Shown here: positions 3,388 through 43,419 of the stretch, in pieces
How the letters are laid out: every line of letters begins with the position of its first letter
How positions within the stretch are numbered: position 1 is the first letter of the stretch
Program-made: the position numbers and the translations under genes
The notes under the pieces: generated by a model
The model's database searches: none
What the model was told of the DNA's origin: nothing
Seen by the model: the letters and a program-made list of their open reading frames with translations, nothing else
Source: an uncultured Kordiimonadaceae bacterium
GTDB lineage: Bacteria > Pseudomonadota > Alphaproteobacteria > Sphingomonadales > Kordiimonadaceae
NCBI GenBank assembly: GCA_963976155.1
Contig: CAXBKT010000001.1
Coordinates: forward strand, 1,308-65,307
Direction: 5' to 3'
Length of the DNA: 64,000 nucleotides

Positions 3388-4347
3388 TTACTCCGCATTT
3401 GGCACACTCGCAGTGTGCCCAACAGACTTACCAGTACCTTTTACATCCTTGAATAACTCAGCAATACCACCAATTGAACCAATCACGCCCGACGCCTCCA
3501 TCGGCATGAAGACAAGTTTTTCATTCGGTGAGTTAGCAAAACCATGCAGCGCCTCAACATACTTCTGCGCCACAAAATAATTAATCGCTTGTGCGTCACC
3601 TTCCGCGATAGCCTTCGATACCATTTCAGTTGCTTTTGCCTCGGCCTCCGCGGACCGTTCCCGTGCCTCCGCATCTCTAAAGGCGGCTTCTTTACGCCCT
3701 TCTGCCTCAAGCATAACGGCTTTTTTCTCGCCTTCTGCTCGGAGAATATCTGATGCGCGCCGGCCTTCAGCCTCAAGTATTGACGCACGCTTATCACGCT
3801 CTGCCTTCATCTGACGAGCCATCGCATCCACAATATCCCGTGGCGGTGCAATATCCTTAATTTCAATTCTTGTAATTTTAATACCCCATGGCTGCGTAGC
3901 TTCATCAACCACATTCATCAGACGGGCGTTAATTTCATCACGTTTGGACAAAAGCTCATCCAAATCCATTGACCCCATAACCGTCCGGAGGTTAGTCATC
4001 GTCAGGTTAAGAATAGCGTGCGTAAGGCTGTTAACCTCATAGCTAGCCTGCGAAGCATCAAGAACCTGAAAAAAAACAACGCCGTCCGCAGCAACCATTG
4101 CATTATCTTTGGTAATGACTTCTTGGGTAGGAATGTCGAGCACCTGTTCCATCATGTTCATCTTGTGCCCAATGCGTTCAATGAACGGGACAATAAGATG
4201 AAAGCCGGGCGTCAAAGTTTTTGTATAGCGCCCAAAACGCTCGACCGTATATTCGAACCCTTGGTTAACCGTAGTAACTGCTGAAAAGATAAATACAACA
4301 GCTAGAAACCCAATCAAACCAACAAGAATTGATGACATATCAACCAT
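3388..4347 (-). CDS. SPFH/band-7 (QmcA-like) protein
   Basis: VERFGRY, QEVITKDN, WGIKITRIEIKDIAPP, Ala/Glu coiled coil. Confidence 0.93.
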   Translation of the reverse strand: MVDMSSILVGLIGFLAVVFIFSAVTTVNQGFEYTVERFGRYTKTLTPGFHLIVPFIERIGHKMNMMEQVLDIPTQEVITKDNAMVAADGVVFFQVLDASQASYEVNSLTHAILNLTMTNLRTVMGSMDLDELLSKRDEINARLMNVVDEATQPWGIKITRIEIKDIAPPRDIVDAMARQMKAERDKRASILEAEGRRASDILRAEGEKKAVMLEAEGRKEAAFRDAEARERSAEAEAKATEMVSKAIAEGDAQAINYFVAQKYVEALHGFANSPNEKLVFMPMEASGVIGSIGGIAELFKDVKGTGKSVGHTASVPNAE

Positions 4348-18424: not shown

Positions 18425-19246
18425 ATGCAGCAAAGAATAGGTATAAAGCTCCGTATATTACTGAGCCTAATCGCTTTAGTATCCTCAGTCAGTTCTGCTG
18501 CCTCCGAGGATACTATTGCTGTTACTATTTATGATTTTCCGCCAGATATCATTAATTCCAAAACAAAACCAGCAGGCCCCCTAACTGACAAAATGAAGCA
18601 GATCATGAAATCCGCAGGCCTCTCGATCCAGTGGCTTCAATCCTCGCTAGCGGAAGAATCCGTTATGTTAAGTGGCGGTAGTCGACCATTTTGTACCACC
18701 GGTCGAATCTACTCCAATATGCGGGTCGTGAAAGATAATTGGATTTTCCTACCCTATACCCTGCACACACTTGCTGGGGATGCCCTTCTTGTCCATCACA
18801 AAAACCTAAATAAATTTGCCCGCTTCAATCACATCACTGAAGTGTTTGAAGCTGATACTCTTACAGGCGTTTTCATAAGCGACGTTAGTTATGGCTCCAA
18901 CATCGATAGTTACCTGAACAAAACCCCGGAGCGATTTGATCGTAGCGCATCATCAACTGACCAGATTATAGCGATGGTGTCTAACCGCCGCGCTGACTAC
19001 GGTATTGTGTCCGCTGAGTATTGGCGGGACTCACTGCGAAAAAATCAACATTATGATCAACTCGTCGATCTTGCTGATCAAATTTCTTTATTTAAAAATG
19101 GCAATGTAAACTTACACTTAGCTTGCAGTCGGGCTGTACCCTCGACTATACTCGCCCGTATAGAAGCCGCGATGCAACAACTTGGGTTCCCAAAATCACC
19201 TGAAAAAATTCAATCCTATATTACTCAAACAATACCACCCAAGTAA
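18425..19246 (+). CDS. Orphan periplasmic substrate-binding-like protein (family 3-like)
   Basis: Signal peptide, DFPP near the N-terminus, MVSNRRADY, LACS; no permease nearby. Confidence 0.5.
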   Translation: MQQRIGIKLRILLSLIALVSSVSSAASEDTIAVTIYDFPPDIINSKTKPAGPLTDKMKQIMKSAGLSIQWLQSSLAEESVMLSGGSRPFCTTGRIYSNMRVVKDNWIFLPYTLHTLAGDALLVHHKNLNKFARFNHITEVFEADTLTGVFISDVSYGSNIDSYLNKTPERFDRSASSTDQIIAMVSNRRADYGIVSAEYWRDSLRKNQHYDQLVDLADQISLFKNGNVNLHLACSRAVPSTILARIEAAMQQLGFPKSPEKIQSYITQTIPPK

Positions 19247-38775: not shown

Positions 38776-40926
38776 CTAAAACATCTTTCTATGGCTTTTG
38801 GCCTTTTTGGTGCGCGTACCTGGTTTGCCGCCCAGCGAGCGTCCTTTTGGCTTACCGTGTGTGGTGCCAAGGCCCAGTTCACCGGCTTCTAGCTTCCGGA
38901 TTTCATCGCGCAAACGCGCAGCTTCTTCAAACTCAAGGTTCTCGGCTGCTTCATGCATTTTCTTCGTCAGCGCCGCCATATGGGTTTTAAGATTTGAACC
39001 CACTAGGTGCTTGGCGTCACCGCCAATACCCACCGTGACATAATCACCAGACGTTGCATGCTCAATGATATCCCCAACATTCTTCTTAACCGACTGCGGT
39101 GTAATGCCGTGTAACTCATTGTAAGCAGTTTGTTTTTCTCGCCTCCGATTGGTTTCCTTGATCGCAGCATCCATCGAGCCCGTGATTTTATCGGCATAGA
39201 GAATTACACGCCCATCCACATTCCGCGCGGCACGGCCAATCGTTTGCACGAGCGAACGTTCTGAACGCAAAAAGCCCTCTTTATCTGCATCCAGAATCGC
39301 CACCAGACCACACTCAGGGATATCCAACCCCTCGCGCAGCAAGTTGATACCCACAAGCACGTCAAAGGCCCCAAGTCGCAAATCTCGGATAATTTCGATC
39401 CGCTCAAGCGTATCAATATCAGAGTGCATATAGCGTACTTTGATACCGTTTTCATGCAGATACTCGGTCAGGTCCTCGGCCATGCGCTTGGTCAGCGTGG
39501 TCGCCAGCACCCGCATGCCCTTTTCAGCAATACGCCGCGCCTCATGCATCAGGTCATCAACTTGGCTTTCTACCGGACGCACATCAATTTCAGGGTCGAC
39601 TAGGCCTGTGGGGCGAATAACCTGCTCTGCAAACACACCGCCGGTACGCTCCATTTCCCAATCACCCGGCGTCGCTGACACATAAACAGACTGCGGACGC
39701 ATTGCGTCCCACTCTTCAAAACGAAGGGGTCTGTTGTCCTTACAGCTCGGCAACCGGAACCCAAAGTCCGCCAGCGTACCTTTACGCTTCGCGTCGCCCC
39801 TGCTCATGCCATTGATTTGCCCAACACCCACATGGCTCTCATCCACAAATAGAAGGGCGTTTTCCGGGATATATTCAAAGAGGGTTGGCGGTGCTTCGCC
39901 GGTATTCCGTCCTGACAAATAGCGGCTGTAATTTTCAATACCCGGACAGCTACCTGTCGCCTCCATCATCTCAAGGTCAAACGTCGTACGCTGCTCAATG
40001 CGTTGCAGCTCGAGCAATCGGTCAGCCTCCTTATATTCCTTGAGGCGCTGCGCGAGTTCAAGTTTGATGCCCTTGATCGCCTGATCAAGTGTTGGACGCG
40101 GTGTTACATAGTGGCTATTAGCGTAAACCTTAATGGTTTCGAGTATCTGTATCTTCTCACCAGTGAGCGGGTCAAACTCGACAATTTCCTCAACCTCGTC
40201 GCCAAACATCATCAGACGCCAAGCACGGTCTTCAAGGTGGCTTGGGAAAATATCGATAACATCGCCGCGAACCCGAAAAGTACCACGCTGAAAAGCTGCA
40301 TCATTCCGGGTATATTGCATCGCAACAAGGCGGCGCAGCAGGTCACGGTTATCTATCTCATCACCCGCTTTTACAGTGAAAGCCATCGCCGTATAGGTTT
40401 CCACCGCGCCGATACCATAAATGCAAGACACGGACGCAATAATGATAACATCATCTCGTTCTAAGATCGCACGCGTTGCAGAATGGCGCATACGGTCAAT
40501 CTGCTCATTGATCGAGGCTTCTTTTTCAACAAAAGTATCAGTACGTGGCACATACGCTTCTGGTTGATAATAGTCATAGTAAGATACAAAATATTCGACC
40601 GCATTGTTGGGAAAGAAGTTTTTAAACTCCCCGTAGAGCTGGGCTGCGAGCGTTTTATTGGGCGCAAGGATCAGCGCTGGTCGCTGCGTCTCCTCAATGA
40701 TTTTGGCCATAGTGAAAGTTTTACCGGAACCAGTCACCCCAAGGAGCACCTGATCTCGTTCACCGCCCTTAATGCCTTCTACCAGCTCAGCAATCGCCGT
40801 AGGCTGGTCACCCGCAGGCTCAAAATCCGATACTATCTCGAACCTTTTTCCACCCTCAGATTTCTCAGGGCGGTTGATTATACGAGGCTCAAATTGAACA
40901 GGCAGAGTTTCGATAGATGGCATCAT
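38776..40926 (-). CDS. uvrB: Excinuclease ABC subunit B
   Basis: [40 protein letters not shown] domain FEEAARLRD. Confidence 0.98.
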
Positions 40927-41154: not shown

Positions 41155-41170
41155 TGGCACAATCCTTGCT
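41155..41170 (+). promoter_or_regulatory. sigma54 (-24/-12) promoter of the porin gene
   Basis: TGGCAC-AATCC-TTGCT with exact GG-N10-GC spacing; AT-rich tract upstream. Confidence 0.8.
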
Positions 41171-41227
41171 AACCAAGCCAAGTGAACCATAAAAATGAAA
41201 CTAAAATCCATACTCGGAGGAAAAAGT

Positions 41228-41929
41228 ATGCCCATTCTTACCTCAAAATATTTCCGCGTGGTCCTAGTTATCACCGCCGCCGCCAGTGCAGCAGCAACCG
41301 CTTCGCCAGCATTTGCTGAAGATAATACCTTCAACCTCTCAGCCAATGCAGCTCTTGTTTCAGACTATCGCTTCCGCGGCATCTCACTTTCAGACAAAGA
41401 CCCTGCCCTCCAAGGTGGTTTTGACCTCGAAACTAAAAGCGGCTTCTATGTTGGCACATGGGGTTCTTCAATCGAAAGCTACGAAGGGTCAGAGCTCGAA
41501 CTGGATGTCTACGGCGGTTATGCGGCAAACTTTGGCGGTCTGGACTTTGATATCGGCATCCTTGCTTACACCTACCCCGGATCAAGTAACACCACATACT
41601 GGGAAGCATATTCGTCCGTCGGCGGGTCCGCGGGCATCGTAAACTGGACACTCGGCGCCGCCTACGCCTTCGACCAAAAAAGCATCGGGGATGATGATAA
41701 TATCTACCTCTATCTGGGCGCAGGTGTACCAATCGCCAACACACCCCTCACTCTATCCAGTCACATAGCCTATGAGGACGGCGCCTTTGGCACTGACAAA
41801 TGGGATTGGGCACTCGGTATAACTTATAACTTCCAGCAGTTTTCGTTAAGCCTCAGCTATATCGACACCAATGTAAACAGCCGGACAGGAAAAGGTGGTG
41901 TAGTTGCCTCCCTATCTACTTCTTTTTAA
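41228..41929 (+). CDS. TorF-family putative outer-membrane porin (TIGR02001-like)
   Basis: GGAGG RBS, signal peptide, SDYRFRGISLS, PALQGGFD, GFYVGTWGS, ELDVYGGY, terminal Phe. Confidence 0.88.
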   Translation: MPILTSKYFRVVLVITAAASAAATASPAFAEDNTFNLSANAALVSDYRFRGISLSDKDPALQGGFDLETKSGFYVGTWGSSIESYEGSELELDVYGGYAANFGGLDFDIGILAYTYPGSSNTTYWEAYSSVGGSAGIVNWTLGAAYAFDQKSIGDDDNIYLYLGAGVPIANTPLTLSSHIAYEDGAFGTDKWDWALGITYNFQQFSLSLSYIDTNVNSRTGKGGVVASLSTSF

Positions 41930-41937
41930 AACCCGAA

Positions 41938-42100
41938 CAGCATCCTTTGTTTCTATCTTCCCTGATAACCTTACAAAGGACGCTGAATTCGCGCCCACCC
42001 AGCTATAGCTGCCTCCCCGCATATAGCTAGTTTGCGCGAACACACTGAAGAGCATAGCGGCCCCATTACCTCCCACTTTGGCCTCTATGCTCTTTTTTTT
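41938..42100 (+). ncRNA. Candidate cuckoo-like sRNA: three hairpins with CCUCCC-type loops, ending in a U-tract
   Basis: Stems 41938-41985, 41988-42040 and 42048-42094; loops CUUCCCU, CCUCCCC and UUACCUCCCA; 3' U-tract ending at 42100. Confidence 0.65.
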
Positions 42101-42120
42101 GCTTCAAGAAAAACACCTAA

Positions 42121-43419
<1,299 letters not shown>

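Follow-up and report, generated by a model that had tools for sequence, protein, structure and literature searches.

The cuckoo RNAs of Alphaproteobacteria consist of two to four adjacent hairpins with no multiloop, each with at least 6 bp and a length of 24-50 nt, joined by linkers of at most 10 nt, and are known from Rhizobiales and Rhodobacterales (PMC4615179). Each of CcsR1-4 comprises a pair of hairpins with CCUCCUCCC loops, and RNase E releases these RNAs from the ccaF1 3' UTR (PMC8034643). C-rich loops are, more generally, a convergent signature of sRNAs that occlude ribosome-binding sites (PMC4615179). Our full-text literature search on Kordiimonas small RNAs found no paper on small RNAs of the Kordiimonadales. 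In the window (the whole 64 kb stretch of DNA analysed here), three consecutive hairpins at 41938-42100 (+) follow a porin gene, the first beginning 8 nt past the stop codon and the last ending in a U8 intrinsic terminator.

The open reading frame upstream of the hairpins matches Pfam Gcw_chp (PF09694, 1.8e-53) and NCBIfam TIGR02001 (5.3e-41). Its likely start is at 41228, which is supported by homologues that are also 233 aa long and begin with MP, and its stop codon is at 41927-41929. The gene carries a strong Shine-Dalgarno (SD) sequence, GGAGGA, at 41216-41221, and this sequence is nearly invariant (YGGAGGAA) across about 40 loci. All named porin homologues belong to Kordiimonas or Kordiimonadaceae, and UvrB of the window is 94% identical to UvrB of a Kordiimonas MAG (L001). 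The gene order uvrB-porin-aminotransferase is kept in the 38 loci retrieved. The features of the locus are as follows.

38776-40923, minus strand: uvrB, divergent from and upstream of the porin gene.
41228-41929, plus strand: CDS of a putative TorF-family (Gcw_chp/TIGR02001) porin of 233 aa (Pfam PF09694, NCBIfam TIGR02001).
41938-41985, plus strand: hairpin 1 (HP1), a 12-bp stem CAGCAUCCUUUGU/ACAAAGGACGCUG with one A/C mismatch and an inner 4-bp helix UAUC/GAUA (MFE fold).
41956-41963, plus strand: apical C/U-rich core of HP1, UCUUCCCU, predicted to be unpaired with a probability of 0.75.
41988-42040, plus strand: hairpin 2 (HP2), with outer stem UUCGCGC/GCGCGAA, middle stem AGCUAUA/UAUAGCU and apex UGCCUCCCCGCA (MFE fold).
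42011-42019, plus strand: apical-loop block of HP2, GCCUCCCCG, with an anti-SD-like CCUCC core, invariant in the alignments.
42041-42046, plus strand: A/C-rich linker CACACU, inside a conserved GCGAACA-ACU stretch (unpaired probability 0.82; alignment conservation).
42047-42100, plus strand: hairpin 3 (HP3), with a 15-bp stem, plus a U tract (T8); together they form the intrinsic terminator at which the porin transcript ends.
42151-42178, plus strand: candidate sigma-70-type promoter of the aminotransferase gene, TTGCCC-N16-CTATCG, a conserved block outside the element.
42217-43419, plus strand: aminotransferase CDS, downstream of the element.

RNAfold of 41930-42105 gives exactly three hairpins as both the MFE and the centroid structure, and the three hairpins named in a preliminary description of this DNA are all present and are the same three. 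The MFE of -62 kcal/mol compares with -29.9 +/- 3.8 kcal/mol for 200 dinucleotide shuffles (z = -8.5), none of which folds as well. The hairpins measure 48, 53 and 49 nt, with linkers of 2 and 6 nt. The inner part of HP1 reads UAUC-UUCCCU-GAUA, and CUCCCC in HP2 is predicted to be unpaired with a probability of 0.98. HP3 (42047-42095, 11+4 bp, with the T run at 42093-42100) closes a 17-nt loop, CCAUUACCUCCCACUUU, that holds ACCUCCCA at 42068-42075 (predicted unpaired probability 0.99); the ACCUCC of this loop equals the canonical 16S anti-SD core. The CACACU linker may have a role such as chaperone binding. CCTCCC by itself is not enriched in the window (14 observed against 19 expected), and no second cluster of this type turned up when all 64 kb were scanned for hairpins with the motif. 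The unusual feature is the cluster of three strong hairpins displaying C-rich motifs, not the frequency of CCTCCC.

An alignable element is found in seven non-identical relatives from Kordiimonas-like genomes and metagenomes (L170, L161, L162, L001, L171, L172 and L167), with porin identities of 65-79%. These close relatives came from exact-protein look-ups and a genome scan, and the metagenome scan contributed few. A covariance model built from a seed of five sequences recovers three that lie outside the seed (L167, E = 4e-17; L172, 2.5e-12; L161, 8e-8). In the eight-sequence model alignment, which was fitted to the structure by the covariance model and so favours pairing, 89.7% of pair cells hold standard pairs (30-48% after the partners have been shifted by 1-3 columns), and 25 of the 46 base pairs show changes on both sides, with none of 500 shuffles reaching the observed values. 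Compensatory changes are still present in 16 of 33 pairs when the unfitted MAFFT/RNAalifold alignment is used. Changes on both sides are distributed over all three hairpins: helix 1 of HP1 has them in 9 of 11 pairs (with 93% of cells paired across the eight sequences), the middle helix of HP2 in all six pairs, its outer helix in three of six, and HP3 in 6 of 16. The middle stem of HP2 differs in almost every lineage, reading AGCUAUA, GGCUAU, CUCGCC, CCCUG or UUGCUA.

The loops follow a different pattern of conservation from the stems. The HP2 apex block GCCUCCCCG is identical in all eight sequences and is the sole long invariant block; a further locus, L002, carries it as CUGCCUCCCCCGCAG. The HP1 core is CUUCCC in five of the eight sequences (the window, L170, L001, L162 and L172), and its variants, CUCCCC in L171, UUUUCCCC in L167 and CUGCCCCUUUU in L161, are all C/U-rich, one of them including CUGCCCC. 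The HP3 loop sequence ACCUCCCA is kept only in L170, with ACCUUCCA in L162, and the loop is otherwise not conserved; L172 and L167 are among the relatives with a weak U tract. Nucleotide identity over the whole element is 57-75%, no higher than the 69-76% of the porin CDS, so that selection acts on pairing and loop sequence and not on the whole stretch. The covariation and the invariant loop thus support the preliminary description in its claim of a conserved structured RNA in the porin 3' UTR, and the compensatory changes it had looked to relatives for are present. It had also named loops that vary on conserved stems as the pattern that would speak against the claim, and the opposite is found, with stems that vary and a loop block that does not. 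Its further claim, of three anti-SD loops, is too strong as regards conservation: the HP2 loop is invariant and that of HP1 stays C/U-rich, and the loop of HP3, the terminator, is kept in the nearest relatives only.

In more distant Kordiimonadales the element is no longer alignable, yet the same site bears hairpins of the same kind. The 3' region of the uvrB-adjacent porin gene repeatedly has two to seven hairpins with C/U-rich, G-poor loops (CUUCCC, CCUCCC, ACCUUCCC, GACCUUCA) across the order. When stable hairpins with CCUCC, CUUCCC, CCUUCC, CUCCCC, UCUCCC or ACCUUC in the loop are counted in 37 syntenic loci, the 3' intergenic region has 4.5 per kb, compared with 0.16 per kb in the rest of the plus strand and 0.06 per kb on the minus strand. 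Downstream of 133 other TorF porin genes, which comprise paralogues from these genomes and genes from Glycocaulis, Sphingomonadales, Emcibacter and others, the density is 0.36 per kb. A motif-blind hairpin census of the 3' intergenic region finds the motif in at least 30% of loops, a lower bound since the span-limited census overlooked known hairpins (0 motif loops in L170, L001 and L004), and a loop composition of 42% C and 7% G. For comparison, the share of motif loops is 0% for the reverse complement and likewise for the 5' (uvrB-porin) intergenic region, 3% downstream of other porins and 5% for shuffles.

The clade of K. gwangyangensis and K. aestuarii has five to seven modules that alternate two invariant loops, CAACCUUCCCUG and UGCYGACCUUCA, on stems that covary (22 of 93 pairs), and one extra module has been gained in two genomes of this clade. 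The syntenic loci L164, L003, L013, L023 and L083 carry a plain terminator only, which indicates that the element is widespread but dispensable. We further note that in L164/L165 (1486-2648) a 242-aa gene on the opposite strand, with no Pfam match, lies between the porin and aminotransferase genes, and a plain terminator stands in place of the array. L009 (3768-3811), L015 (3750-3791) and L017 (4005-4048 and 4243-4286) contain almost perfect hairpins, very long at 16-18 bp, with the pattern GGCAUACCG...GCCGACCUUCAC...CGGUAUGCC. Such GGCAUACCG...CGGUAUGCC hairpins recur in several lineages, twice in K. marina, are often preceded by unpaired AUCCCUCCCCUGGC, and are a distinct, highly conserved module type within the arrays. 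Separately, CTGAGAGTCTGC...GACCCTTAGAACCTGATCTGGCTAACACCAGCG found 3' of paralogous TorF porin genes (L010, ~3790-3930; L031, ~3840-3960; L084, ~2270-2400) presumably resembles the TPP (THI-box) riboswitch.

The flanking genes are conserved at 81-94% (UvrB) and 78-96% (aminotransferase) amino acid identity across the syntenic loci, and the porin at only 55-79%. The porin thus evolves much faster than both neighbours, as expected for a surface-exposed protein under diversifying pressure. Most Kordiimonadales loci (about 25) have a conserved CTTGCT(G) motif ~50-60 nt before the start codon of the porin gene (window 41160-41195, +), and the TTGCTA-N17-ATAAAA found at this position in the window is likely the porin promoter. 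Downstream of the element, the region 42145-42216 (+) upstream of the aminotransferase gene is strongly conserved in relatives (AACTTCCCGTTGCCC...GCCTATCGTGC...TTTTCAGGACGCTTAAAAATG) and resembles TTGCCC-N16-CTATCG followed by a conserved 5' UTR with a weak AGGA Shine-Dalgarno; the block AACTTCCCGTTGCC...GCCTATCGTGC around this promoter candidate is conserved in L001, L161, L162 and L172. From its sequence, TTGCCC-N16-CTATCG, 50 nt downstream of the element, is plausibly a separate promoter, in which case the aminotransferase gene would have its own start and HP3 would end the porin transcription unit.

HP3, the only one of the three hairpins with a U tract, is the only one able to terminate transcription. 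A promoter scan of 41900-42100 found none. An internal promoter candidate over the last porin codons and the stop codon, TTGCCT-N17-TAAAAC, is not conserved at synonymous sites in relatives; synonymous sites vary freely in the last 25 porin codons, so that no conserved internal promoter is visible there. Small open reading frames over the element were rejected as an explanation: they are only TTG- or GTG-initiated (27-54 aa), and the indels of relatives are not multiples of three. Given the 8-nt gap, the lack of a promoter in the scan and HP3 as the sole terminator, the element is most simply the 3' UTR of the porin mRNA, and we infer that it is co-transcribed with the porin gene. Like other 3'UTR-borne RNAs, the element is bounded by the stop codon and the intrinsic terminator of its host gene, no separate promoter was found for it, and selection on structure and seed is seen in the covariation, the invariant loop and the order-wide enrichment. 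The definition of a simple intrinsic terminator fits HP3, and HP1 and HP2 are conserved in addition.

The hairpin layout of the element is that of cuckoo RNAs, though HP2 exceeds the 50-nt limit by 3 nt. None of the 4227 Rfam models, RF02344 included, matches at the gathering threshold in the window or in 20 related loci, and a plus-strand search at E <= 10 over 2 kb and over 186 nt returned no family match, alphaproteobacterial sRNA families included. The best Rfam match, to antisense_SR1, a Bacillus family, at 42047-42235 (-), scores 38.2 bits, below the gathering threshold of 45 (E = 2.9e-5); it spans the reverse complement of HP3 and of the aminotransferase promoter and 5' UTR, probably reflects a hairpin plus an A-rich tract, and is probably due to chance. 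No CCUCCUCCC is found within one mismatch anywhere in 41900-42110, and in place of this cuckoo motif the loops hold CUUCCC, CCUCCCC and CCUCCC, with cores of 6-7 nt. The upstream gene is a TorF porin and not a CIN1-type DUF1127 gene, and the relatives belong to Kordiimonas and other Kordiimonadales. Cuckoo RNAs have several paralogous copies per genome. Both the motif-plus-hairpin scan and the covariance model find one copy in the 64 kb window. With filters off, the model marks a single site besides a weak 16.8-bit match at 18475-18644 (+), which we rejected as a second copy: its position is inside a 273-aa ORF, in the N-terminal part, and it has no folding advantage over shuffles (z = -1.7). 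A hairpin loop in that stretch, UGCUGCCUCCGA, resembles the HP2 apex.

These results bear on whether the element could belong to the cuckoo (ar14/CcsR/NfeR1) family by descent, as a true but highly diverged homologue relocated to a porin context. Such an origin would account for the adjacent hairpins, short linkers, anti-SD-like loops, alphaproteobacterial host and CcsR-like position in a 3' UTR (PMC4615179, PMC8034643), and remote cuckoo members are poorly found by covariance models (PMC4615179). We nevertheless regard it as very unlikely, as there is no Rfam match (E <= 10, plus strand), no loop within one mismatch of CCUCCUCCC, no DUF1127 context and no second copy in 64 kb, the order lies outside the reported range, and convergence on C-rich loops is well documented (PMC4615179). 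The preliminary description had offered two options, a divergent cuckoo/ar14/CcsR member or a new family. The covariance search it proposed for the former gave no match in the window or the 20 related loci, which, together with the missing CCUCCUCCC and a host outside the known taxa (PMC4615179), speaks against membership, and the data back the latter. The contrast it drew between a porin mRNA origin and CcsR is less marked than it assumed, since an upstream ORF with its 3' UTR is the source of CcsR1-4 as well (PMC8034643). The element is most likely a new lineage-specific family of porin-3'UTR-borne regulatory RNA, cuckoo-like in its working but outside the cuckoo family.

The best reading of its function, to which we give about an even chance, is that of a conserved modular 3'UTR-borne RNA that pairs with ribosome-binding sites in trans through its loops. 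The porin promoter would drive both the porin gene and the element, the transcript would end at HP3 and its U8 tract, and the hairpins would act as scaffolds presenting C/U-rich, G-poor loops (GCCUCCCCG, CUUCCC and, in the window genome, ACCUCCCA). These loops, which resemble the 16S rRNA 3' end, would pair with GGAG-type ribosome-binding sites and thereby block translation initiation, or alter the stability, of target mRNAs. The RNA would most likely act in trans, whether it stays on the full mRNA or is freed as a ~165-nt fragment when an endonuclease cleaves the AU-rich sequence UUUUUAAAA around the stop codon. Porin transcription would in this way be coupled to the expression of other genes. 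The CCUCC or CUUCC of the loops is complementary to GGAGG or GGAAG, and GGAGG is present at porin ribosome-binding sites; as in the anti-SD class, the C/U-rich loops are exposed, with unpaired probabilities of 0.75-0.99. Variable stems that present conserved loops are a hallmark of seed-bearing regulatory RNAs. Pairing in trans is favoured by this loop pattern together with the CcsR precedent and the general signature of C-rich loops. Against it count the shortness of the C-rich cores (6-9 nt), the lack of conservation in the HP3 loop and the syntenic relatives that do with a plain terminator, and duplex predictions with the 124 SD-bearing start regions of the 64 kb window give candidates down to -20 kcal/mol with none outstanding.

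The same complementarity could act in cis, with the loops pairing to the SD sequence of their own porin mRNA, joining its 5' and 3' ends and limiting translation or triggering decay. The porin SD is strong and nearly invariant (about 40 loci) and can pair with CCUCC and CUUCC, the element is physically tied to one porin gene throughout the order, and a UCCCCUG motif in the S. aureus icaR 3' UTR pairs with the SD of its own mRNA (PMC3868564). The predicted pairing of the three loops with their own start (-8.7, -10.0 and -9.2 kcal/mol) is, however, average when set against the means for the 124 SD-bearing starts (-9.4, -11.1 and -8.9 kcal/mol), so that special self-targeting of the porin SD was rejected. 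Complementarity stops at a generic 5-6 nt, loop motifs change between clades (ACCUUCCC against CCUCCCC) where the SD is constant, and two to seven loops exceed the need of one SD, and on balance we consider pairing in cis unlikely. Mere protection and termination is a further alternative: HP3 with U8 has all the features of a textbook intrinsic terminator, a simple terminator is enough for some relatives, and highly expressed outer-membrane-protein mRNAs often have stable 3' ends, so the array might be only a compound terminator and 3' stabiliser against 3' exonucleases, its C-rich, G-poor loops being a by-product of, for example, avoiding SD-like or G-rich sequence. A stabiliser would need stems and not loop sequence, and here the stems drift while GCCUCCCCG is invariant. 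The loop motifs also recur in clades that differ in stems and module number and are not seen in the 5' intergenic region or after other TorF porins (0% and 3% of loops), making this explanation decidedly unlikely.

With its multivalent, identical loop motifs on variable stems, the array resembles CsrB/RsmZ-type sponges, and CcaF1 binds CcsR RNAs (PMC8034643); the C/U-rich loops might in the same way bind a protein with a KH or cold-shock domain, a chaperone or a CcaF1-like factor, which the array titrates or recruits. The genomic context offers no candidate protein, the neighbours being uvrB and an aminotransferase gene, and the match of the motif to the anti-SD sequence points more simply to RNA partners, and we find a protein-binding platform quite improbable. 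A Rho-utilisation (rut) region, in which the C-rich, G-poor 3' UTR loads Rho as a termination backup, would fit the strongly negative GC skew (-0.35) across 41900-42200 and the weak U tracts of relatives such as L172 and L167. Rho prefers unstructured RNA, however, and the C residues here lie in the loops of very stable, covarying hairpins and include a specific invariant 9-mer, which leaves a rut site with hardly any likelihood. The protein platform, the mere stabiliser and the rut site are thus each less likely than pairing in trans or in cis.

Pairing in trans can be carried one step further. Each porin transcript, with its two to seven SD-binding loops, might be a stoichiometric clamp on ribosome-binding sites or a sponge, or else a platform for a loop-specific protein; we consider this proposal speculative and improbable. 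If the clamp or sponge were real, transcription of the porin gene would directly determine how far a whole group of strong-SD mRNAs is translated, and arrays would change over time as modules are gained or lost and as the loop 'dialect' (CCUCCCC, ACCUUCCC, GACCUUCA) shifts from clade to clade.

The element adds a well-supported new RNA family for the Kordiimonadales and is a candidate Rfam entry. It points to no new mechanism. It does suggest an independent evolutionary arrival at anti-SD-loop hairpin arrays on an mRNA 3' end, as in CcsR, and its invariant loops, covarying stems and gain and loss of modules at one syntenic site make it a good case for modular sRNA evolution. The nature of the host gene, an outer-membrane porin, suggests a post-transcriptional link between porin expression and other genes.

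Among known systems, the element shares with the cuckoo RNAs (ar14, RF02344; CcsR1-4 of Rhodobacter sphaeroides; NfeR1 of Sinorhizobium) adjacent hairpins, short linkers, variable stems and anti-SD-like C/U-rich loops. Both are alphaproteobacterial, with two to four hairpins in cuckoo RNAs and three here, rising to about seven in relatives. CcsR, like the element, is co-transcribed with an upstream ORF and lies within its 3' UTR (PMC4615179, PMC8034643). The element differs from the cuckoo RNAs in loops that read GCCUCCCCG, CUUCCC, ACCUUCCC or GACCUUCA and not CCUCCUCCC, in the missing covariance-model match, in a TorF porin host instead of DUF1127, in its occurrence in Kordiimonadales, in its single copy in 64 kb and in a last hairpin that doubles as terminator. 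The actinobacterial 6C RNA is also an sRNA with C-rich loops. In S. aureus RNAIII and Rsa RNAs (UCCC), Xanthomonas sX13 and H. pylori RepG, hairpin loops with C runs pair with G-rich ribosome-binding sites, a convergent likeness (PMC4615179); these RNAs are unrelated to the element in sequence and taxon, and most are stand-alone genes with their own promoter and not porin 3' UTRs. The icaR 3' UTR of S. aureus likewise places a C-rich anti-SD motif in the 3' UTR of a protein-coding mRNA (PMC3868564), but its single motif is complementary over a longer stretch to the 5' UTR of the same mRNA and it belongs to another phylum, whereas the element has several loops with generic complementarity to the porin SD. 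The alphaproteobacterial 3'UTR-derived sRNAs SorX (from ompR-1), UdsC and CcsR share the terminator of a coding gene, as the element does, and are released by RNase E (PMC8034643, PMC9779115). SorX and UdsC, unlike CcsR and the element, are not multi-loop anti-SD arrays, and processing of the element is putative. The element is therefore best filed as a new family within a known kind, the UTR-borne regulatory RNAs built as hairpin arrays with anti-SD loops, its regulatory function being proposed by analogy with these systems.
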